NCBI GenBank assembly: GCA_964363335.1
Contig: CAYIHW010000001.1
Span: forward strand, 1-39,203
Length of the DNA stretch: 39,203 nt
Direction: 5' to 3'
DNA from: an uncultured Candidatus Saccharibacteria bacterium
GTDB taxonomy: Bacteria; Patescibacteriota; Doudnabacteria; UBA920
Shown one piece after another: positions 7,387 through 39,203 of the stretch (position 1 is its first letter; each line of letters begins with the position of its first letter). Under the pieces are notes generated by a model. It was given only the letters and a program-made list of their open reading frames with translations, had not been told where the DNA came from and made no database searches. Position numbers and translations under genes: made by a program.

Positions 7387-7548
7387 TAGACTTGTTGCTT
7401 AATAATTTTCCGCCCAAAATATGCTCTTTCGCCAAAACCTTGTTAAAAATTTCTCCGCTTAACTACGGTTAAACATCAAAATTTATAAACTGCGGTTTTG
7501 TCTGAAATATCATATTTTGCTTCGAAAAATTATTAAGCAGCAAGTCTA
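7387..7548 (+). repeat. E1: 162-bp hairpin element (long imperfect palindrome with a conserved apical core)
   Basis: Termini TAGACTTGTTGCTTAATAATTTT / AAAATTATTAAGCAGCAAGTCTA. Core AAAAATTTCTCCGCTTAAC-TACG-GTTAAACATCAAAATTT at 7445-7484. Preceded by TATAATTATAGG at 7364. Confidence 0.9.
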
Positions 7549-11102: not shown

Positions 11103-12091
11103 TGGATTAGTTGAATTAACTTAGTATCTCCTTAATTGACAATAGGTTCCGATGATTCTTTTTGTTAAAATAAGTTGCCATAAGGTAGCTGAAAATAATA
11201 TTTCTGATTCTGGCCTTAACCCCTTCCGCGCTCTTGGCTCTCAGTTTCTCCAGGTTAAAATGATCTTTTAACTGTTGATTAATAACTTCAATCAGTATTC
11301 GGTGTTTCAGCTTGCGCTTCTCCCACTTGGTGTTCCTGATTTTCTGGTTCTTTCGTTTAGGAATGATTACCTTGATGCGCTGTTCTAGTTTTAACTCCTA
11401 ATGGATTTTCTTGCCAGCATAACCTTTGTCCCCGATTAACCATATGCCCTGTAAATCTTTAACCGCTGGTTGTAACGCTTTAACATCGTGGCGGCGGGCA
11501 GACATCAGGTGGTAAGTTACCGGAATACCCTCTCTGTTAACAATTAATGTCAGTTTTACACCATAATACCGCTCTTTCTTGGCATGGCAGTAGCCGACTC
11601 CAAAGAATTTATTATCGTTAAAGGCTTTGGTTTTCCATCTGCGGTAGAACTTAGTTACCGGCACTCCGGTAGCGTCAATAATTCGGATTTTAGACTTGTG
11701 GGTCTTTAGTTTCTTTAACACCGTTGCCGTTAACCGCTCAATGACTGGTTCCAACTCCTTGCTCCGATGATTGTAGCGGGACTGGGTGGGAAGCTTGGGA
11801 AAAGCTTTGCAGGGATGGTTCTTTAAAAATCTTAGAAACTCCGATTCATTGCTGTAGCCTTTGAGGTTCTGGACGACCACCATTTGGCAAACGTAGAGAT
11901 CTGAAAACTCCCGTTTACCTGGCCGTCTAGGCTCTTTAAAGCCAGACTGCTTGTAAATCTCCCTCACAAGATTTACAATCTTAGTGAGATTTGGCATATT
12001 TGTTTTTGTGTTTGTTTTAGGCTCTTACACAAAAAGTATGCCAAATTTCGCTTTTAAACGCTATGTAAAGGTGCTTAATTCAACTAACTCA
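11103..12091 (-). mobile_element. IS982-family-like insertion sequence (989 bp) with a 9-bp target duplication
   Basis: Terminal inverted repeats TGGATTAGTTGAATTAA (11103-11119) and TTAATTCAACTAACTCA (12075-12091). The direct repeat TAGGTATTA lies at 11094-11102 and 12092-12100. The element encodes a DDE transposase. Confidence 0.8.
11116..11997 (-). pseudogene. IS982-like DDE transposase, interrupted by an in-frame TAG and a frameshift
   Basis: A 199-aa N-terminal ORF ends at TAG (11398-11400). The same frame continues as ELKLEQRIKVIIPKRKNQK. The C-terminal segment (KIRNTKWEKRKLKHRILIEVINQQLKDHFNLEKLRAKS...) is in another frame after an A5 run near 11339-11343. Confidence 0.75.
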
Positions 12092-12104
12092 TAGGTATTA
12101 TACC

Positions 12105-16968: not shown

Positions 16969-16997
16969 CACTATAATACTATATCGTATCATAGTAA
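16969..16997 (+). promoter_or_regulatory. Copy 2 of the 29-nt TATAAT-plus-palindrome motif, directly upstream of the TrpR/YerC-like gene
   Basis: CACTATAATACTATATCGTATCATAGTAA. The first 20 nt are identical to copy 1 at 2339. Confidence 0.6.
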
Positions 16998-17003
16998 GAA
17001 TAT

Positions 17004-17495
17004 ATGACGAAATTATCTAAAAAACTTGTAGACCCAAAAGAAATGGGTAACTATATAAATAATTTTTGGTCTGCGTTAACTTTAATGGATACCAAAGAAG
17101 ATGTTAAGCAATTGGTCAAAGATCTCTTTACGCATACCGAATATAAAATGTTAGCAAAAAGATTAGAGATTGGCAGGTTGTTGCTGGCTGGCTCTGACTA
17201 TAACACAATTGAAAAAAAGCTCAGGGTTACTCCAGTTACCATATCACGGATAAGCAATGTTTTAGCTGAGAAGGGGGCAGGTTTAAGAAAAGCAAATAAT
17301 AAATTAAATTTAATTGAAGAAAAACACCTTTCGAGACAGATAGAAAGAACTAAAAATTTAGAAAATCCATTTAGGCAAAAGATAAATAGGAAAACTCTGG
17401 GCGGGTCTTTAATTAAAGCCGGTTTGTCGGCGCTTGATAAAAAAATAACTAAATCAATAAAGCAAAATTCAGCGAAAAAATTATTAGAAATTTAA
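17004..17495 (+). CDS. TrpR/YerC-YecD-like DNA-binding protein
   Basis: 163 aa. The segment FTHTEYKMLAKRLEIGRLLLAGSDYNTIEKKLRVTPVTISRISNVL matches the Trp-repressor-like HTH pattern. Confidence 0.65.
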   Translation: MTKLSKKLVDPKEMGNYINNFWSALTLMDTKEDVKQLVKDLFTHTEYKMLAKRLEIGRLLLAGSDYNTIEKKLRVTPVTISRISNVLAEKGAGLRKANNKLNLIEEKHLSRQIERTKNLENPFRQKINRKTLGGSLIKAGLSALDKKITKSIKQNSAKKLLEI

Positions 17496-17523
17496 ACTAT
17501 ATTACTATATCGTATTATAGTCA
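17495..17523 (+). promoter_or_regulatory. Copy 3 of the 29-nt motif, overlapping the stop codon of the TrpR-like gene and preceding a small lipoprotein ORF
   Basis: AACTATATTACTATATCGTATTATAGTCA, with perfect ACTATA-N6-TATAGT arms. Confidence 0.6.
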
Positions 17524-17541
17524 TTATTTCAGGAAGGATTT

Positions 17542-17664
17542 ATGAAAAAAAGTATTTTAATTATTGCATTTTTAAGTTTACTGGCGGCGGGGTGTGGAAA
17601 GGTGGTTTTAAAACAAGAAATTCCATCTAGTCCGAAAGAATCATATCAAGAGTTGCCGAAGTAA
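17542..17664 (+). CDS. Small putative lipoprotein (40 aa), absent from the ORF track
   Basis: MKKSILIIAFLSLLAAGCGKVV... A signal peptide with a lipobox-like LAAGC, and AGGAAGG 5 nt upstream of the ATG. lgt is present in this window. Confidence 0.5.
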   Translation: MKKSILIIAFLSLLAAGCGKVVLKQEIPSSPKESYQELPK

Positions 17665-23467: not shown

Positions 23468-24400
23468 ATGAATTATGGAAAAGTAAAATATTTGATATTT
23501 TTGTTATTGCTTATATTCCTTGGATATTTTTTAAGCCAGGTTTTTTCTGGTAATGTAATTTTGTCGCAAGCGTTTTTTGTCGGGCCTCTAGCGATCCACT
23601 ATTATGGCTTAATAATGGCTTTGGCCGTGGGGGCAGGATTTTATTTAGCAATAAAAAGAGCAACTGGATTTGGGATTAGCAAATCTTCAGCGGAAGATTT
23701 TTTATTTTGGGTAATTATTGGGGGCTTCATTGGGGCTCGTTTGTACCATATAATGTCATCACTTGAATACTATATACAAAACCCGATTAATATTATTAAA
23801 GTCTGGAACGGCGGTCTGTCTATCTACGGCGCCCTAATCGGAGGAGTTATTATAATTCTGTATTTATCTAAAAGCTATAAGCCCCGCCTGCAATCGCCTG
23901 AGGCTCAAGCCGATGGCGGGCAGGTAAAAGCTATAAGCTTGCTAGACTGGCTTGCGCCATCTCTCATCCTCGGCCAAATCATTGGCCGGTTTGGCAACCT
24001 ATTTAATTACGAAGCCTACGGTTATCCGACAAGCGTGCCTTGGAAAATGTTTGTGCCTCAGCAATTTAGGCCAGAGACTTACATAGCCCAGAACTATTTC
24101 CACCCATTTTTTCTTTACGAGGTTTTAGGGAGCCTTTTCATCTTAGGCATAATTTATTATATTTCCCGATTTCGGACACAGCAAACCGGTAAATACCGTA
24201 TTTTTGCCAATGATGGTACGCTTTTCTTTTCCTACGTTTTATTGTATAATAGTTTAAGGTTTTGCTTAGAGTTTTTAAGAATTGACAGCACTTTCATTGG
24301 GGTTTTTAGACTAAATGCCATAATTAGTTTGGTGTTGGTTTTATTGGCCGTCGGTGGATTTTTTGCCTTAAACTATAAATGCTCCAGAGACACAAATTAA
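23468..24400 (+). CDS. lgt: Prolipoprotein diacylglyceryl transferase with an in-frame insertion
   Basis: 310 aa, polytopic. Lgt motifs HYYGLIMA, GARLYH and GRFGNLFNYEAYG are present. Confidence 0.9.
   Translation: MNYGKVKYLIFLLLLIFLGYFLSQVFSGNVILSQAFFVGPLAIHYYGLIMALAVGAGFYLAIKRATGFGISKSSAEDFLFWVIIGGFIGARLYHIMSSLEYYIQNPINIIKVWNGGLSIYGALIGGVIIILYLSKSYKPRLQSPEAQADGGQVKAISLLDWLAPSLILGQIIGRFGNLFNYEAYGYPTSVPWKMFVPQQFRPETYIAQNYFHPFFLYEVLGSLFILGIIYYISRFRTQQTGKYRIFANDGTLFFSYVLLYNSLRFCLEFLRIDSTFIGVFRLNAIISLVLVLLAVGGFFALNYKCSRDTN
23869..23938. repeat. 42-bp GC-rich palindrome flanked by 14-bp direct repeats, inside lgt
   Basis: TAAAAGCTATAAGC at 23869-23882 and 23925-23938 flanks CCCGCCTGCAATCGCCTGAGGCTCAAGCCGATGGCGGGCAGG. 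The reverse complement closely matches the element at 38069-38116. Confidence 0.85.
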
Positions 24401-27970: not shown

Positions 27971-28816
27971 ATGGAAGATAAGGTTTTAATTTTAGGCCAT
28001 AAGGGAATGCTTGGCGGGCAATTGATGAAGGTTTTTGGCGTCCGGGCAATTGGTTGGGACCGTGAAGATGTTGATGTAACAGATAACGCTCAATTGATCG
28101 GCAAGCTAAAAGCTATAAGCCATCAGCTAAAAGCTATCATTAACTGCGTAGCTTATAACGATGTTGACGGGGCAGAAACACATCAGTCAATTGCTCTTAA
28201 ATTAAACCAACAAGTCCCTGGTGGTTTGGCCTTAATTTGTAAAGATTTAGATATTCCGCTGGTACATTTTTCTTCCAATTATATTTTTGACGGCAAAAAA
28301 GGGGAGTATATGGAGAATGATTTGCCTCAGCCCCAATCGGTTTATGGGCAAACTAAATATAATGGGGAATTAGAAATTATTAAAAATACTAACCAGTATT
28401 ATATTATCCGCACCTCGGTATTATTTGGCCCCAAAGGGGAAAGCGCGCTTGCAAAAAAAAGCTTTGTGGAGTTAATGTTGGATTTAAGCAAGAGGCAAAG
28501 CAGCATTAAAGCAGTGGTTGATGAAATAAATAGTTTAACTTATGCCCCGGATTTGGCGGCAGCGGTGAAAAAACTATTGGATGACAAAAAAACCTTTGGG
28601 GTATATCATATAACTAACAGTGGTTCTGCTAGCTGGTTTGATTTTGCCCAGGAAATATTCCGCATAATAAATAAGCAAATAATCTTAGAACCAGTTGGAT
28701 CCACTGAATTTAAAAGGCTAGCCAAGCGGCCAAAAAAGGCGGTTCTGTTGAATACCAAACTGGAGAGTTTAAGAAGCTGGCAGGGCGCGTTAAAAGAATT
28801 TTTGTTATTACAATAA
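27971..28816 (+). CDS. rfbD: dTDP-4-dehydrorhamnose reductase
   Basis: 281 aa. The GMLG Rossmann region, the YGQTKYNGE (YxxxK) motif and an RmlD-like length. Confidence 0.88.
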   Translation: MEDKVLILGHKGMLGGQLMKVFGVRAIGWDREDVDVTDNAQLIGKLKAISHQLKAIINCVAYNDVDGAETHQSIALKLNQQVPGGLALICKDLDIPLVHFSSNYIFDGKKGEYMENDLPQPQSVYGQTKYNGELEIIKNTNQYYIIRTSVLFGPKGESALAKKSFVELMLDLSKRQSSIKAVVDEINSLTYAPDLAAAVKKLLDDKKTFGVYHITNSGSASWFDFAQEIFRIINKQIILEPVGSTEFKRLAKRPKKAVLLNTKLESLRSWQGALKEFLLLQ

Positions 28817-28978
28817 TAGACTTGTTGCTTAATAATTTTTTGAAGCAAAATATGATATTTCAGACAAAACCGCAGTTTATAAATTTTGATGTTTAACCAT
28901 AGTTAAGCGGAGAAATTTTTAACAAGGTTTTGGCGAAAGAGCATATTTTGGGCGAAAAATTATTAAGCAACAAGTCTA
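28817..28978 (-). repeat. E2: inverted, near-identical copy of E1
   Basis: It starts on the nucleotide after the rfbD TAA. The reverse complement of E1 differs at 4 of 162 positions with no indels, by manual alignment. Confidence 0.9.
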
Positions 28979-31883: not shown

Positions 31884-33224
31884 ATGACCCAAGACAATTC
31901 TACAAAAAAATATCCGGTTACTACCGCCGAAGTTGCCAAGATGCTGGGCATCGGACATGTTTCTGATAATTTACCCCTTGGTAGTGGCCTTAAAGTATCC
32001 GATTTACCGGTTGCTGATTTGTCAGTGGTTGAGGCGGATACTGGAGCCGCGGCATCCGCGCGCATTGAAAGACCCACGCAACCTACAGAAAATTTCGCTG
32101 ATGATTTATTAGCCAAAGAAACTAATCAACCGGTTTTAATTAAAGCCGGCAAAGCGGTTTTGCCGTACGCCGCTGTGTTTACAGTGGGCTTATTTTTATA
32201 TTTCTTTTTCTTTTCTTCGATAAATTTTTCCACGCTTTTTAAAACAAAACAAACTTCTCCGGCAACACCTAAAGAAACCGCCATAGAGCAGTTGGAAAAA
32301 CAGAACCTCACCGCGTACAACGCCTGGATTAGCACTTATTATTATGACATTTCCGACTTAAAAATTCTTGATCCGGAATATGACAATTCGGGCAATGGGC
32401 TGACCAACTTTCAAAAATATTTGTTAAAATTAAACCCAAAATCTTACGATACCTTGGGTTTAGGTATGGCTGACAGCCAAGCCTTGTCTTTAGGGATTGA
32501 CCCTGCTACCGGAAAGCCGCTTAATGAAGAGAAAAAAAACTTAATTGCCAAATATGTTGATATGGAAGTTGTTAGCAATCGGTTGACTTTGTCTAATATG
32601 CAAAATCCTCAGCGGGTAGCCGGAGCGGAAATTGGTATTCGTGGTGATAATTTAAACCCAGGTAATTATATAATTCCCACGGCTTCTGCAAATACCTCAA
32701 CCAACAATAATAATATAGCCCCAACTACTGGCTCGGATATTTTAACTCCCGGCAGTGAAACCGAAGTTCAGGTTAATACCGCGGTTGCCGGACGGCTGGA
32801 AATTCCTTCGTTAAAAATTAATGTGCCGATTATTTGGACAAGCGAGCCGAAAAATTTTGATAAAGATTTGCAAGCCGGAGTGGTCCACTATCCGGGGACA
32901 GCACTGCCGGGGCAAATTGGCACGACTTATATTTCGGGGCACTCCAGTAATTATATTTGGGCAAAAGGGAACTATAATAAAATATTTTCTAAGCTTGGTG
33001 ATTTAGCGGACAACACTTCATTTAAAATTACCGTAGTCCAAAAAAATGGCCGCGACGCGGTATTCCATTATGTGGTAACCGGACGCAAGGAATATTCCGC
33101 CACTGATCAGGAGCAATTTAAAAATTCCGGTAAATCTACTGTGGCTTTATCTACCTGTTGGCCAGTTGGAACCACTGCCAAAAGATTAGTGGTATTTGGC
33201 GTGGCAACTCAGGTGGAAAAGTAA
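31884..33224 (+). CDS. Sortase-family transpeptidase with a long N-terminal region and a TM anchor
   Basis: 446 aa. The C-terminal domain has LEIPSLKINVPI, the His motif YISGHSS and the catalytic Cys motif ALSTCWP. Confidence 0.8.
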   Translation: MTQDNSTKKYPVTTAEVAKMLGIGHVSDNLPLGSGLKVSDLPVADLSVVEADTGAAASARIERPTQPTENFADDLLAKETNQPVLIKAGKAVLPYAAVFTVGLFLYFFFFSSINFSTLFKTKQTSPATPKETAIEQLEKQNLTAYNAWISTYYYDISDLKILDPEYDNSGNGLTNFQKYLLKLNPKSYDTLGLGMADSQALSLGIDPATGKPLNEEKKNLIAKYVDMEVVSNRLTLSNMQNPQRVAGAEIGIRGDNLNPGNYIIPTASANTSTNNNNIAPTTGSDILTPGSETEVQVNTAVAGRLEIPSLKINVPIIWTSEPKNFDKDLQAGVVHYPGTALPGQIGTTYISGHSSNYIWAKGNYNKIFSKLGDLADNTSFKITVVQKNGRDAVFHYVVTGRKEYSATDQEQFKNSGKSTVALSTCWPVGTTAKRLVVFGVATQVEK

Positions 33225-33266
33225 ATTATGGCTTAATTAAAGCAAAGAACAAGGACATCCTAGATA

Positions 33267-33295
33267 TTGACAAAAGTACTAAAAAGTATTATAAT
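33267..33295 (+). promoter_or_regulatory. Consensus sigma70-type promoter of the giant surface-protein gene
   Basis: TTGACA (33267-33272), a 17-nt spacer, then TATAAT (33290-33295). The downstream TATAATTATAGG...GAAATAAAT string is shared with the region upstream of E1. Confidence 0.65.
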
Positions 33296-33341
33296 TATAG
33301 GTTGAGAAATAAATGAGTTTAAAACTCTCAATTCCAGTGTA

Positions 33342-33510
33342 TTAAGGGACTGTTGCCGAATGTCATTTTTGCCCAAAAAGAGCTTGTTTGGTAAAATTCC
33401 CAAAAAAATTTATCCGCTTACCTTTCAGGTAAACATCAAAATTTGTTTTGAAAATTTTCCTCAAACCCGTCTCTTGCATCAAAAAGCCCATTCGGCAACA
33501 GCCCCATTAA
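33342..33510 (+). repeat. E3: 169-bp hairpin element in the 5' UTR of the giant gene
   Basis: TTAAGGGACTGTTGCCGAATG ... CATTCGGCAACAGCCCCATTAA. Core AAAAATTTATCCGCTTACC-TTTCA-GGTAAACATCAAAATTT. Confidence 0.9.
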
Positions 33511-33560
33511 ATAAGCAACAGCTACTTGATTAATTAAATAGCTTAAGGAGTAACAAATTT

Positions 33561-36500
33561 ATGAATAATCTTATGAGCATAATTAAAAGGTTAGCAAAAC
33601 CAGGATCCTTAGCGTCTTTTTTGACTTTGGTTTTGGTTACCGCTGTTTTAATAGTCTCGCCGCAAAAAATCAACGTGGCTAAATCGGAAAGCTGTTCTAA
33701 TGCTCCGGCCATAGCGACTTTGAATTTTTTTCCGGTAACATGGGATAGTACCGCTGGCTACGGCTGTACCGATTTTGCCCCGATCGCCGTGCGTAATTTG
33801 GAAGAGACCGGATATGTTTCAAATGACTATGGCTTGCCTGGTGATGAGTTGTACGTGAGGATTTACGTTCACAACGGAGCCCAGCAAGGCCTGGACTCCA
33901 GCCAAACTACGGCTTTTGGTGTTAATGGAAGCTTTTCAATTTCCGGTAATACTGTCAGCACATCATTTTCCGGCACTCGAGGAGATGGCAGTGTAACTAA
34001 TACTGTAAATGGCAGTGTGACGATAGATTTACCGGAGGGTGGTAATCTGGAAATAGTTCCTAACAGCGGACAATTTTTTGACTATCAAGCAAATCAGATT
34101 TCCGGTAATGACAATTTAGCCGGCAACTCCGGCAGTTTTGATATGGGCGAAATGCAAGCCTGCTTTGAATTTTCTAAATTTTATCGGTTTAAAGTTAAAG
34201 TAGTTGGTGGAACTATTACTCCTCCGGCTGGCCAAACTATTACCGGGCAAATTTCCAGCGCTATTGGAATTTGTAAGGCCAATGGTTTGTATAACGCCAA
34301 CGTAAACTGGAATACCAATGCCAGCCAGCCGCTGGTTACTGTTAGCGACCCTGCTTTAAACTCCGACAATTATTACGATAACGATAAAATTTTTAGCTAT
34401 AGCCCGCAGAGTAACGAAACCGTGGATTGGATTAGCCCAAATAGCGGCTATCGTTTTTCTCTGTGGTCCATTGATCCAAGCGGCGAAAGCCATTCTTTCC
34501 GCGATATAAATAACAACCGCGTGACTGTTAAAGCAGTAAAGCTTTATGAGACTTGGGTTTCATCCGGCGCTTCTTGTGGCCAGACCGTCCCTCCGGTGGA
34601 AAAAGTTCCTTCTGGCAATATCACCGCCACTACGCCGACTAAATTATCTGGCCAGTGTTTATTCCAAAACACCGTTTCTTGGACTACCCAGAATGTTACT
34701 TCTGCCAGAGTTGATGTTACTGACTTAAAAGATAACGTTACTAACGTAGTTGGTTATAATTTGAATGACACCACTACCGACACTGCTTGGCTACAACCGG
34801 ATAGATCCTATCGTTTTACTTTATATAATACTGCTAACGGCCAAGATAAATTGGATTCAGCGGACGTTACCATTGGTTCTTGTGGCACCACTCCGCCTCC
34901 AGTGCAAGCTCCTTCCGGTCGAATTTCCGCTTCTCCAGCAGTAAAAATTAGCGGTATGTGTTTCTTTAGAACCACTGTCATTTGGGCAACTCAAAATGTT
35001 ACCTCTGCTGTGGTAGAAGTTACCGATATGGCAGAAAATGTTACCAATGTGGTTGGTTATAATTTAAACGATACTACTTCCGATACCTCCTGGATGCAGG
35101 CGGATAGAACCTATCGGTTTACTCTATACAATACTGCCAATGGTAAAAATCAATTGGCTTACGCCGATGTTACTACTGCTGGTTGCGGAACAACTCCGCC
35201 TCCGGTTTGCGTTGTTAATACCAACTACTTCTTAAATGCCGCCGCTCCGGTAAAGCAAGATTCTAACTATTCGGTAAAATTGACTTGGGGTTCTGACGGT
35301 AATAACCAGATTAAATTAACTCAAGTTAATTCCAATAATTCGGAAACTGCTTTAACCACAGGCGCTAACAACGGCACTTTTACCACCTCTGCTAATTTGC
35401 AGGCTGGTAACACCTATACTTTTAAGATTTACGACGCCAACCCGGAATGCGGAAAATTCTTAACTTCCACTCAGGTCGTTATCCAATCCTCTCCATCTCA
35501 GTTAGTCTGTTCTGCCGACAGTTCTGTTTATAATGTTGGTCAACCGGCCACTTTTAGAGCGACTGGCGGGACATCTCCGTATACTTGGACTGGCAATGGA
35601 CAATCTTTTACCGGTAGTGTCTTTACCACGGTTTATACTACCAGCGGCAATAAAAATGTGATTGTGTTTAGCAATGACGGACAGACTGCCAATTGTAGTA
35701 CTTCTATTAACCAGCCGGTAACGGAAAAAGGGATTGTGAATTTGACCAAAGAAGTCAGAAATGGCGAAGGTTCTTTTGCCCACGCCGCATCCGCCAAGCA
35801 AAATGACATTGTGGAATATCGAATTAAAGTTTGGGCGGGCAGTTCCGTTGCCCTAACTAATGTTGTGGTAACCGATACTTTTGCTTCCGGACTGTCATAC
35901 GTAGAAGGTTCCTTAAAAGTTGACGGACAGTCTCACGCAAGCGGTTTAACTTCCGGCGGCTTAAACTTTAGCTCTATCTCTCAAACTCCAAAAGTTATAA
36001 CTTATAAAGCGAAAGTTACGGCAACGATGGGCAGTATTGTTAATACCGCCCAAGGCTTTGCGCAAAATGCCAATAACGCGGCAAATGATCAAGCCATAGT
36101 TAACGTTTCCTTTGTTAACCCCGGCCAGCCTTCTTTGAGCATTACCAAACAGGTAAAAAATGTTACCCAAAATACCGATTACGACACTGCCGTTTTAGCC
36201 AAGAAGAACGATGTTGTTAAGTACCAGGTAGTTATTAAAAATGTCGGTCAAGCCACTGCGAAAAATGTCTATTTCAACGACAGTAATCCGGCGCAAGTTC
36301 AGCCCCTTTCTAACCTAAGCGTATCGGCTAGCTTTACCGGTGGAATCCCCCAAGGTGTTTCTTTGGGAGATTTAGCGGCCGGTGCCAGCGTGGTTATTAC
36401 TTATCAAGGAACAGTAAAAGTTGATAGCGGTACAATTTTAAACATGGCTACTGTTTCCGCGGACAATGCTACCAGCCAAAATGCTTCCGCTACGGTCACT

Positions 36501-37592
36501 ATTACCACCCAGCCAAATAACAACGGCGGTGTAACCAACAATTATTGTGTAAACTATTCTTGCAACACCATAATCAATACTACTAATACAACAAACACCA
36601 CCAACACAAATACGAACAACTACAACAACTACAGTTACGTTTATATCAATAGCACCGGCAATACAGTCCCGGCCAGCCAATACAGCCAGCTTGGAGTGTC
36701 CAAGTCCGTCCGGTTATCGGGTAGTGGCGCATTCCAAAACAGCGTTACAGTAAACAATAACGACACAGTGGAATTTGAAATTGTGGTTACAAATACAGGC
36801 AACCAGAACATTAATAATGTCCGGTTGATCGATAATTTAACCAATGGTTTAAGCATAGTTTCCGGTACGGTACGCGTGGATGGCTCCTATGTTTCCGACA
36901 GCAATTTATACAGCGGAATATATTTGGGCAGTCTATCTGCCGGCGCGCAAAAGCGTGTTAACTTTCAAGCCAGAATTAATAACAATAATAACTCCAGCAT
37001 TCAGAATATTGCCGTGGCTTCCGGCGACAACACTTCTTCCGTCCAAGATGACGCTTGGGTGTTCATTAACACCGGTTCTGTCCAGGGCGGCAATGTGAGC
37101 TTAACTTACAGCAAGAAAGCTTTCAATGAAACTAAGAATCAAGATGCGACAGCTATCACCGCTTCCAAAGAAAATTATATTGTCTATACTTTAACTGCCG
37201 CCAATAACGGAAACACTCCGGCCAATAACTTTGTTATAACCGATGATTTGTCACAGGTTTTACCTTACGCTGACATTGCGGATAACGGCGGCGGCACAGT
37301 AAGCGGAAATGTAATTTCTTTCCCCGGGCTGACCGTACCGGCATACGGCGCGGTTTCCCGAAGTTTTAAAGTCAGAGTAAAGTATTCCTTGGCCGATAAC
37401 TTATCTTATGTTATGACCAACACTTATGGCAATAGCATTTCAGTTAGAATTAATACGCCTCAGGTATTAGGAGTATTTGTTGCTCCAAAAACCGGTGCTG
37501 AAACCGGAGCCTTTGCTTTTGCTGGCTTGCTGACCGCGGCAACAGCCTTGATTAAACGCAGAAAGCAATTATTAAAGCTAATATTCACTTAA
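33561..37592 (+). CDS. Giant cell-surface protein (DUF11-type repeats) with a sortase sorting signal
   Basis: 1343 aa. AAGGAG lies 10 nt upstream. Features: an N-terminal signal/TM, four ~100-aa Cys-bounded modules, a PKD-like module, several DUF11-like repeats (NDxVxYxIxVxNxG pattern), and the C-terminal APKTG plus a hydrophobic helix plus KRRK. Confidence 0.85.
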   Translation: MNNLMSIIKRLAKPGSLASFLTLVLVTAVLIVSPQKINVAKSESCSNAPAIATLNFFPVTWDSTAGYGCTDFAPIAVRNLEETGYVSNDYGLPGDELYVRIYVHNGAQQGLDSSQTTAFGVNGSFSISGNTVSTSFSGTRGDGSVTNTVNGSVTIDLPEGGNLEIVPNSGQFFDYQANQISGNDNLAGNSGSFDMGEMQACFEFSKFYRFKVKVVGGTITPPAGQTITGQISSAIGICKANGLYNANVNWNTNASQPLVTVSDPALNSDNYYDNDKIFSYSPQSNETVDWISPNSGYRFSLWSIDPSGESHSFRDINNNRVTVKAVKLYETWVSSGASCGQTVPPVEKVPSGNITATTPTKLSGQCLFQNTVSWTTQNVTSARVDVTDLKDNVTNVVGYNLNDTTTDTAWLQPDRSYRFTLYNTANGQDKLDSADVTIGSCGTTPPPVQAPSGRISASPAVKISGMCFFRTTVIWATQNVTSAVVEVTDMAENVTNVVGYNLNDTTSDTSWMQADRTYRFTLYNTANGKNQLAYADVTTAGCGTTPPPVCVVNTNYFLNAAAPVKQDSNYSVKLTWGSDGNNQIKLTQVNSNNSETALTTGANNGTFTTSANLQAGNTYTFKIYDANPECGKFLTSTQVVIQSSPSQLVCSADSSVYNVGQPATFRATGGTSPYTWTGNGQSFTGSVFTTVYTTSGNKNVIVFSNDGQTANCSTSINQPVTEKGIVNLTKEVRNGEGSFAHAASAKQNDIVEYRIKVWAGSSVALTNVVVTDTFASGLSYVEGSLKVDGQSHASGLTSGGLNFSSISQTPKVITYKAKVTATMGSIVNTAQGFAQNANNAANDQAIVNVSFVNPGQPSLSITKQVKNVTQNTDYDTAVLAKKNDVVKYQVVIKNVGQATAKNVYFNDSNPAQVQPLSNLSVSASFTGGIPQGVSLGDLAAGASVVITYQGTVKVDSGTILNMATVSADNATSQNASATVTITTQPNNNGGVTNNYCVNYSCNTIINTTNTTNTTNTNTNNYNNYSYVYINSTGNTVPASQYSQLGVSKSVRLSGSGAFQNSVTVNNNDTVEFEIVVTNTGNQNINNVRLIDNLTNGLSIVSGTVRVDGSYVSDSNLYSGIYLGSLSAGAQKRVNFQARINNNNNSSIQNIAVASGDNTSSVQDDAWVFINTGSVQGGNVSLTYSKKAFNETKNQDATAITASKENYIVYTLTAANNGNTPANNFVITDDLSQVLPYADIADNGGGTVSGNVISFPGLTVPAYGAVSRSFKVRVKYSLADNLSYVMTNTYGNSISVRINTPQVLGVFVAPKTGAETGAFAFAGLLTAATALIKRRKQLLKLIFT
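34575..35183 (+). repeat. Tandem duplication of a ~102-aa module inside the giant gene
   Basis: Units 34575-34880 and 34881-35183 both run from CG(Q/T)T-PPPV... to ...YRFTLYNTANG...DVT. Long identical stretches include NVTNVVGYNLNDTT. Confidence 0.85.
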
Positions 37593-37759
37593 AGGGTCTG
37601 TTGCCGAATGTCATTTTGACTGCAATTTCAGAATTTCGGCCATTCGACCCAAAAAATTTATCCGCTTAACTAAAAGTTAAACATCAAAATTTGTTTGTGT
37701 CGACTGTCTCGAAATTCTGAAATTTCGTTACAAAAGCACATTCGGCAACAGACCCTTAA
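37589..37759 (+). repeat. E4: 171-bp hairpin element in the 3' UTR of the giant gene
   Basis: Its terminal TTAA supplies the TAA stop at 37590-37592. TTAAAGGGTCTGTTGCCGAATG ... CATTCGGCAACAGACCCTTAA. Core AAAAATTTATCCGCTTAAC-TAAAA-GTTAAACATCAAAATTT. Confidence 0.9.
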
Positions 37760-37768
37760 ATTAGAGGG

Positions 37769-37812
37769 AAAATGGAGCCTTGCCCATGTTGGGCTCAAGG
37801 CTCCATTTTTTG
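37769..37812 (+). terminator. Intrinsic terminator of the giant gene
   Basis: ATGGAGCCTTGCCCA-TGT-TGGGCTCAAGGCTCCAT followed by a T6 run. Confidence 0.85.
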
Positions 37813-37909
37813 TTCCCGGCAACAGAGTTTGCATTATTTTTTTTAAGTGGTATTATATTAGTATCAAACAAAAATAAAAACAGCGGCTTTTAAGGAGCAG
37901 GGCTGTTTT

Positions 37910-39100
37910 TTGTTAAATTATTATACAGTTATGAACAATTTTTATCTTCAAGAGCTAATAGAAGAAGCTCAGAATCGCGGCGGCGGAATGATTTTGAATT
38001 ACGAAGAAAAACCGGCGGTGGTGGTTTTAACGGTGGAAAAATATAACACGTTACTTCAAAATCAAGAATCTCCTGCCCGCCAGATGTCTGAGCCTCAGGC
38101 GATGGCAGGCGGGAGAATTAATGATGTCAAAGCAACAAGAGTTTTGGTAACAGGCGGGGCGGGTTATATTGGCGGACACTTAGTCAGAGAATTAATAAAG
38201 CAAAACTACGAAGTTGTGGTCTTGGACAATTTGTCCACCGGCCGGAGGGAAAACATCGACCCGCGTGCAATTTTTGTGGAAGGGGATTTGGCGGATCAAA
38301 ATTTACTTCGCGATTTATTTGCCGCCAATAAATTTTCAGCGGTGTTTCATTTGGCTGCCAGTTTGGAAGTTGAAGAATCCGTGAGAGAACCTGAAAAGTA
38401 TTATCGCAACAACGTTTTAAATACGGCGCGTTTGCTGGGTGTTATGAATGAGGCTGGGATGAAAAAAATAATTTTTTCATCTACCGCTGCCATTTACGGC
38501 GAAGCCGCGCAAGTACCGATTTCAGAAACCGCGCCGCTGCACCCGAATAATCCGTATGGATACAGCAAGCTTCTCGCCGAAAGGACAATAAAATATTATT
38601 GCGAATTTTTGGGCTTCTCCGCGGTGGTCTTTCGCTACTTTAATGCTTGTGGGTTTGATGTGGAGGCAAAAATTTTGCCCACTCACCAGTCTCACTTAAT
38701 TTTCAATGTCATGCAGGTTGCCAAAGGCGAAAAGCCCGTTTTAACTGTTTTTGGCAACGATTATTCCACTTTTGACGGCACCGGCGTACGGGATTATGTT
38801 CATGTGTTGGATATTGCCTTGCCGCATATTGAAGCCTTAAAGCAGATGGAGAGTAATTCTAAATACGAAGTGTATAACATTGGCACCGGCGTTGGCTTAA
38901 GTGTGGCGCAAATTGTTAACACTGCTTCGGAAATTTTAAATAAAATTATTCCTATGGAAGTATCACCCCGGCGTCCTGGGGATTCCGCTGTTACCATTGC
39001 CGACAACACTAAATTGTTAAACGGCTTGGGCTACCGCCCCCGCCATAGCGATTTGCAAAACATTATAACTACCAGCTGGGAAGTTTTGAAAAACATTTGA
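37910..39100 (+). CDS. galE: UDP-glucose 4-epimerase-like SDR, read as one ORF with an N-terminal Phd/YefM-like segment
   Basis: 396 aa. The GalE core runs from about residue 77 (RVLVTGGAGYIGGH, YGYSKLLAE). Residues 8-52 resemble a Phd/YefM antitoxin N-domain. The track start is a TTG; ATGs lie at 37931, 38084 and 38102. Confidence 0.8.
   Translation: MLNYYTVMNNFYLQELIEEAQNRGGGMILNYEEKPAVVVLTVEKYNTLLQNQESPARQMSEPQAMAGGRINDVKATRVLVTGGAGYIGGHLVRELIKQNYEVVVLDNLSTGRRENIDPRAIFVEGDLADQNLLRDLFAANKFSAVFHLAASLEVEESVREPEKYYRNNVLNTARLLGVMNEAGMKKIIFSSTAAIYGEAAQVPISETAPLHPNNPYGYSKLLAERTIKYYCEFLGFSAVVFRYFNACGFDVEAKILPTHQSHLIFNVMQVAKGEKPVLTVFGNDYSTFDGTGVRDYVHVLDIALPHIEALKQMESNSKYEVYNIGTGVGLSVAQIVNTASEILNKIIPMEVSPRRPGDSAVTIADNTKLLNGLGYRPRHSDLQNIITTSWEVLKNI
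38069..38116. repeat. 48-bp GC-rich palindrome inside the galE-like ORF, same family as the lgt insert
   Basis: The core CCTGCCCGCCAGATGTCTGAGCCTCAGGCGATGGCAGGCGGG (38072-38113, flanked by TCT and AGA) compares with the reverse complement of the lgt element (23882-23924), CCTGCCCGCCATCGGCTTGAGCCTCAGGCGATTGCAGGCGGGG. Confidence 0.85.
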
Positions 39101-39158: not shown

Positions 39159-39203
39159 ATAGAAACAAATTGTTATAAATAACGTCTTAATTAGTATGAG
39201 TAT

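Follow-up and report, generated by a model that had tools for sequence, protein, structure and literature searches.

The hairpin elements E3 and E4, which flank a sortase-substrate gene in a 39,203-nt stretch of DNA (the window) from a Doudnabacteria population in Hainich groundwater, arose with high probability by two separate insertion events of a miniature inverted-repeat transposable element (MITE) of about 160 bp, one into the ancestral 5' leader of this conserved gene and one, at its stop codon, into its 3' untranslated region (UTR). E3 occupies positions 33346–33505 (160 bp) and E4 positions 37594–37755 (162 bp), 4.25 kb apart and in the same orientation on the + strand. A first-pass annotation of the window had recognised both hairpins and their direct orientation and had put their size at about 170 nt, which the boundaries given here refine. 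The coding sequence between them (33561–37592, +) runs from ATG at 33561 to TAA at 37590–37592 and encodes 1343 residues that comprise a signal peptide, four copies of the DUF11 domain and, at the C-terminus, an APKTG motif ahead of a hydrophobic stretch and KRRK. Together with the sortase gene directly upstream, these features bear out the earlier designation of the product as a sortase substrate, hereafter called the adhesin.

The insertions became apparent by comparison with syntenic relatives, whose sortase is 80–84% identical to that of the window. Three relatives share the order RmlD, nucleotidyltransferase, CAP-domain protein, sortase and adhesin, and L104, the only longer locus, continues to the epimerase gene. 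E3 is absent at the syntenic loci L102, L104 and L106, and E4 at L102, L103 and L104. The sortase–adhesin spacer measures 337 nt in the window versus 170–192 nt in the relatives, in which promoter hexamers, leader and Shine-Dalgarno sequence are conserved around the empty site of E3. At this site the relatives read GTGTATTAAATAAGCAA with a single ATTAA, and the window reads GTGT-ATTAA-E3-ATTAA-ATAAGCAA, with the two pentamers at 33341–33345 and 33506–33510 (both +). For E4, L104 reads ...ATATTTACCTAAAATCAAAGAG and the window ...ATATTCAC-TTAAA-E4-TTAAA-TTAGAGG, with the pentamers at 37589–37593 and 37756–37760 (both +). In both cases the filled site minus the empty site equals the element plus exactly 5 bp, so that E3 and E4 each represent a clean insertion that duplicated 5 bp of the target. 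The same alignments correct the proposal that E4 supplies the TAA of the adhesin gene: the stop codon lies in the left target copy (L104 ...TTTACCTAAAATC), and the reading frame ends with LKLIFT* in the window and in element-free L104 alike. On this comparison the stop codon is native target DNA and does not come from E4. Perfect 5-bp duplications at the exact element boundaries were also found for 13 of 21 copies with the same ends elsewhere, compared to none at shifted boundaries, and for approximately 25 further MITEs of 73–204 bp with these ends on metagenome contigs.

In their anatomy, E3 and E4 are short elements without coding capacity (no open reading frame (ORF) of at least 20 residues being needed), bounded by A-type ends, GGGACTGTTGCCGAATG ... 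CATTCGGCAACAGCCCC. The terminal inverted repeats GGGWCTGTTGCCGAATG and their complement occur at both ends of each element, and CTGTTGCCGAATG with its complement was found in both, giving four exact matches versus 0.73 expected at up to two mismatches. The mutually complementary termini described in the first-pass annotation are thus real, and represent the terminal inverted repeats of one MITE class. Each element forms a near-perfect hairpin, with an RNA minimum free energy of –53.2 kcal/mol (z-score –8.0) for E3 and –74.0 kcal/mol (z-score –13.5) for E4. A scan against Rfam 15 at gathering scores matched the elements to no family, and a scan by E-value returned only chance-level matches to miRNA-type hairpins (E ≥ 0.4). 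E3 and E4 are mosaics with identical runs of at most 20 nt: their ends are 92–96% and their apices 88% identical, the mid-arms only about 50%. The nearest copies of E3 in other genomes are 88–90% identical to it, and for E4 a copy with 93.8% identity exists in L041, another Doudnabacteria metagenome-assembled genome (MAG). Because E3 and E4 share only 72% identity overall and each has closer counterparts in other genomes than its neighbour across the adhesin gene, we regard them as independent in origin; the two elements around the adhesin gene are separate insertions into permissive, AT-rich UTR sites and not a designed pair.

A candidate class of autonomous partners was obtained by scanning metagenome contigs with the A-type end, with two 'not-A' positions chosen so that none of the 56 intact A-type MITE ends in the collected sequences could match. 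Elements of 1.23–1.28 kb were found that share the approximately 17-bp ends GGGNCTGTTGCCGAATG with E3 and E4 and encode a 333-residue protein with the Pfam domains DUF772 and DDE_Tnp_1, which scores 150.5 bits against the NCBIfam model NF033581 (IS5 family; cut-off 140). Full-length copies of these insertion sequences (IS) are flanked by 5-bp duplications, namely CTGAT (L217), ATTTG (L232) and TTGTC (L240/L243), and thus match E3 and E4 in both ends and duplication length. The transposase has thousands of close homologues, most of them on contigs of about 1.3 kb, as is typical of an IS present in many copies. One homologue is attributed by NCBI to Candidatus Vogelbacteria, copies of one variant were present in samples of the same Hainich aquifer, from the wells H41 and H51, and plasmid-borne relatives are at most 42% identical. 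We conclude that this is a MITE family of a known type, whose ends are those of IS5-family elements and whose duplication measures 5 bp.

In the mechanism that we propose, an IS5-family DDE transposase acting in trans would recognise the terminal inverted repeats of about 17 bp and insert the element at AT-rich pentamers by a 5-bp staggered cut, whereby ATTAA would have been duplicated around E3 and TTAAA around E4. Since AT-rich pentamers containing TAA are common at gene ends, copies would often come to lie at stop codons, and the duplication would leave the stop codon intact. Among the flanks that face a stop codon in the listed loci, 12 of 50 end within 5 nt of it, and the copy E2 of the window abuts the TAA stop of the RmlD gene (28814–28818), so the placement of E4 follows a recurrent pattern. 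No copy was found inside an ORF in these loci.

Some observations weigh against this explanation. A partner IS with A-type ends was not found in the window, whose sole IS is an unrelated IS4-like element; the long elements were also absent from the 92 listed genome loci, an all-against-all comparison of 463 ORFs yielded no transposase cluster, and no IS with B-type or other types of ends was found. We infer that the partner transposase was once present in this lineage. The classical IS5 group makes 4-bp duplications (YTAR in the case of IS5 itself), and the duplications of the partner IS at L217, L232 and L240/L243 are 5 bp long. However, other IS5 subgroups differ in duplication length, so that this discrepancy bears on the assignment to a subgroup and not on membership in the family. 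Finally, neither the partner IS copies nor other MITEs with the same ends contain the conserved asymmetric apex described below; recognition by the transposase therefore does not explain this feature.

The predicted placement of both elements in transcribed UTRs is based on the conservation of promoter and terminator at the same places in element-free relatives. The sigma-70-type promoter at 33267–33295 (+) matches the consensus at 12 of 12 positions (TTGACA at 33267–33272, a 17-nt spacer and TATAAT at 33290–33295), as had been annotated, and is the only perfect site within 31.5–39.2 kb; both hexamers are invariant across the three element-free relatives in an alignment of the upstream spacer, which makes this promoter native to the adhesin gene. 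The Shine-Dalgarno sequence AAGGAG at 33545–33550 (+), located together with the start codon as the first-pass annotation had stated, is kept in the relatives as well. Likewise, an intrinsic terminator does follow E4: a GC-rich hairpin, GGAGCCTTG...CAAGGCTCC (37775–37803), and a T-run form a native terminator at 37775–37812 (+), which is kept in L104 and has an equivalent hairpin in L102. E3 and E4 therefore lie in predicted UTRs and probably within one transcript that would extend from the native promoter to the native terminator, in which each element would fold locally into a long hairpin. We infer that the elements are neutral or mildly regulatory passengers. In part of the population (L093, L095, L101), a 5-nt insertion, ACGAT, directly precedes the –35 hexamer of the adhesin gene (window 33255–33266).

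Compatible with a MITE origin, although on balance improbable, is the possibility that the hairpins have been exapted as RNA regulators that are cut or bound by RNase III or block exonucleases and thereby set the level of the adhesin mRNA, an effect for which they would have been retained. Such a role, which corresponds to the possible RNase III processing or mRNA stabilisation suggested earlier, is supported by the high stability of the two stems, each of about 70 bp, in the predicted mRNA, by the presence of both elements in all population contigs that span the locus, and by the precedent of the Correia elements of Neisseria (PMC2649163). Copies between co-directional genes also lean towards the sense orientation (26 sense, 12 antisense; p = 0.034), and the apical stem shows the covariation described in the next paragraph, with G-T yet no A-C intermediates at the closing position. 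On the other hand, relatives have the same locus architecture without the elements, the predicted accessibility of the Shine-Dalgarno sequence is virtually the same with and without E3 (0.24 and 0.23, respectively), and E2 is antisense to its flanking genes. In addition, the wobble asymmetry of the arms favours the opposite strand, and the few copies that were found independently of the apex have a decaying apex.

The apex deserves separate consideration, because it is the sole feature of the elements outside standard MITE biology. It comprises 40 nt (33405–33444 in E3, 37653–37692 in E4) with the arrangement AAAATTTnTCCGC-stem-loop-stem-ACATCAAAATTT and an asymmetric internal loop, in which TCCGC is opposed to ACATC. 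All four copies of the window carry a near-identical apex, AAAATTTnTCCGCTTA-stem/loop-TAAACATCAAAATTT, whereas their arms differ yet stay self-complementary. The 6-bp apical stem covaries, and its closing pair takes all four Watson-Crick forms, with five G-T versus no A-C intermediates. Per-copy alignments of the arms gave a wobble asymmetry of 25 (+) versus 55 (–), which conflicts with the signal from the closing pair of the apex, and both signals are confounded by shared descent. RNAalifold on a whole-element MAFFT alignment recovered the outer stem only, because indels misalign the arms. One may speculate that the apex is a functional single-stranded module, acting as RNA or as single-stranded DNA, and forms part of a mobile chassis whose outer ends were exchanged repeatedly, giving access to different transposases; we consider this even less probable than the exaptation of the hairpins. 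In its favour, the apex is asymmetric, covaries and has persisted in combination with ten or more end types and two or more unrelated mid-arm lineages; it is missing from other MITEs with the same ends, and copies between co-directional genes are more often sense than antisense. However, copies in the genome scan were found via the apex motif, so that the invariance of the apex among them is partly built in, and the few copies found independently of it have one to three substitutions or insertions in the apex, i.e. are decaying. If the apex were indeed such a module, E3 and E4 would equip the adhesin mRNA at both ends with a hairpin that binds a protein or an RNase.

Short, apex-less derivatives with A-type ends were also observed (L028:4744-4816; L115, L125, L162 and others), likewise with 5-bp duplications. 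They include a 73-bp copy with an internal deletion, flanked by TTAAT and TTGAT, which match at four of five positions, and a 98-bp and a 108-bp family with perfect 5-bp duplications. Since these derivatives carry the duplications as well, the apex appears to be unnecessary for mobilisation.

Two further readings, which take up possibilities raised in the first-pass annotation, are very improbable. In the first, the direct repeats would bound a mobile or deletable adhesin cassette, as in a composite transposon or by recombination between the repeats. The direct orientation, the distance of 4.25 kb and identical runs of 18–20 nt would fit such a cassette, but each element has its own matching 5-bp duplication and no single outer duplication encloses the pair. 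Moreover, related genomes without elements hold the adhesin gene in conserved synteny, so the order sortase–adhesin–epimerase is ancestral, which refutes mobilisation of the cassette, and with mid-arms only about 50% identical the homology is limited to runs of at most 20 nt. No recombinant E3/E4 junction was detected among the population contigs; those that stop at the locus all break exactly in the shared end, as assembly would lead one to expect. In the second, which we regard as equally improbable, pairing of the left end of E3 with the right end of E4 would circularise the mRNA. The complementarity of the termini corresponds to a duplex of –26.6 kcal/mol, but the same ends pair inside each element in stems worth –53 and –74 kcal/mol. 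When leader and 3' UTR were cofolded, the local hairpins stayed in place and only four trivial intermolecular pairs were gained, at –1.7 kcal/mol beyond the monomers.

We see practically no room for the idea that the hairpins serve a different system as recombination or structure-specific sites, for instance as integron attC sites or as REPIN/RAYT doublets, although imperfect palindromes do flank the gene in direct orientation and their arm structure is conserved more than their sequence: the ends match a DDE IS, and target duplications with matching empty sites are present, which neither integron integrases nor HUH transposases are known to produce. Integron attC sites are defined by IntI, R''/R' core sites and no duplication, and the window contains no integrase; REPIN/RAYT systems have no duplication and a linked Y1 transposase. 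An IS200-like (RAYT-like) ORF, identified by the motif YHLYNRGNGRQDVFLDDE only, occurs in two of the 92 listed loci, including L047:3651-4419, and is not adjacent to E copies.

The insertion of MITEs thus remains the best explanation for E3 and E4, and the distribution of related copies is in line with it. A genome scan with the apex motif, covering one genome per species, showed that copies are dispersed: in addition to the four in the window, more than 92 loci were found among the matches listed, nearly all in Patescibacteria MAGs that belong to the Doudnabacteria, are labelled Saccharibacteria or Uhrbacteria, or are unclassified. Some genomes contain many copies, often at contig ends, and contigs often break inside copies. 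Intact copies were also present at three loci from a MAG labelled Gammaproteobacteria (L038, L043, L053). Two matches in Methanobacterium and one in WWE3 had neither flanks nor a stem and look like chance matches, and the apex motif had no match in viral contigs. The chassis, of about 160–162 bp, is constant, as is the spacing between apex and ends, and it is combined with at least ten end types. Conversely, the mid-arms of A-type copies fall into at least two unrelated lineages, 'GCCCAAAA...' (represented by E3) and 'CTGCAATT...' (represented by E4). Duplications vary with the end type: they are 5 bp long for A-type and apparently 3 bp for C-type ends, and for B-type ends the result depends on where the end is drawn, namely TA in 13 of 13 or AWT in 8 of 13 copies. 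A search of the literature on Patescibacteria, the candidate phyla radiation and Saccharibacteria for reports of MITEs returned nothing relevant, and the family is apparently undescribed for Patescibacteria.

Among known systems, the IS5-family IS described here has the same 17-bp ends as E3 and E4; the MITEs lack its ORF and share only about 25 nt with it at each end. Tourist-type MITEs of the PIF/Harbinger superfamily, which is related to IS5, are eukaryotic and make a 3-bp TWA duplication. They resemble the E elements in their short terminal inverted repeats and AT-rich targets, and depend on an IS5-related DDE transposase acting in trans, as we propose for the E elements. The ERIC/IRU and YPAL repeats of enterobacteria and Yersinia are imperfect palindromes over their whole length of 127–170 bp, which are transcribed in UTRs and were reported to alter mRNA decay. 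They differ from the E elements in sequence and host range, and no partner transposase has been defined for them. Correia elements (CREE/NEMIS) of Neisseria are small non-coding MITEs of about 100–160 bp with inverted-repeat ends and a conserved core, which occur in very many intergenic copies, often inside transcription units, where their mRNA hairpins can be cut or protected by RNase III (PMC2649163). The E elements resemble them in being small and non-coding and in their inverted-repeat ends, conserved core and many intergenic copies. However, Correia elements have a TA duplication, a core bound by IHF and a host range restricted to Neisseria (in part after PMC2649163), whereas E3 and E4 have a 5-bp duplication, an unrelated sequence without the Correia consensus ends and an identifiable IS5-family partner class. 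By analogy, an E element may work like a Correia element without being a member of that family.

The other two copies of the window, E1 (7388–7547, +) and E2 (28818–28977, –), are 97.5% identical to each other and combine the same chassis with B-type ends, AGACTTGTTGCTTAATAA; so high an identity predicts that a partner with B-type ends is active. Like E3 and E4 at their sites, E2 is missing from the RmlD–nucleotidyltransferase spacer of L102, L104 and L106. A fifth copy, also with B-type ends (TAGACTTGTTGCTTAATAATTTT), lies just beyond the window end at 39203, approximately 130 nt after the stop codon of the epimerase gene (L094:10300-10330 and L109). The 9-mer CGGCAACAG, which corresponds to the inner 9 nt of the right end, occurs in two extra copies within about 60 nt of E4, at 37537–37545 and 37817–37825, with 0.26 expected over the whole window. 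Each originated through point changes in sequence that can be aligned to element-free relatives, the former, inside the coding sequence, through two synonymous changes, and similar 9-mers were not enriched in the flanks of other A-type copies. A third partial element end had been suspected near 37815; the sequence at 37816–37828, CCCGGCAACAGAG, is not an element remnant, because it aligns without gaps to TCCGGTAGCACGA in element-free L104.

The sortase gene upstream of the adhesin gene (31884–33224, +; Pfam Sortase, E = 1.3e-19) provides context only. The IS4-like element at 11108–12092 (–) has the ends TTAGTTGAATTAA and an 11-bp direct repeat, ATAATACCTAT, on both sides. Its DDE_Tnp_1 ORF (11398–11997) ends at an in-frame TAG, with the frame continuing to approximately 11117, and the element lies upstream of a small GIY-YIG-like ORF. 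Just past the right end of the window, the sequence after the epimerase gene diverges in one sample only (L111:1383-1509) into TTCTAATTCAACTA; this sequence resembles the terminus of the IS4-like element, which points to an insertion that is polymorphic within the population. At 37910–38140, the epimerase ORF has an N-terminal extension of about 75 residues ahead of its Pfam match, as does the relative L104, and this extension holds one arm of a 42-nt inverted repeat, the other arm of which is in the LGT gene (38072–38113 versus 23883–23924). Another pair of 42-nt inverted repeats, 90% complementary, flanks an LD-carboxypeptidase ORF (54–95 and 1158–1199). The motif CACTATAATACTATATCGTAATATAGT, a –10-like box followed by a palindrome, is found at 2339–2386, 16969–17016 and 17495–17542, upstream of rplJ as well as around a Trp-repressor-like ORF; it may represent a common promoter or operator.

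Taken as MITEs, the four hairpins of the window belong to a multi-copy family of ultra-small Patescibacteria for which a partner class and an insertion signature can now be given. This has consequences for genome assembly, as contigs break inside copies, for annotation, as copies lie at stop codons and in leaders, and for the dating and typing of strains, as insertions are lineage-specific. If the hairpins alter the fate of the mRNA, a surface adhesin of an episymbiont would be under MITE-borne control, comparable to the situation with Correia elements in Neisseria.

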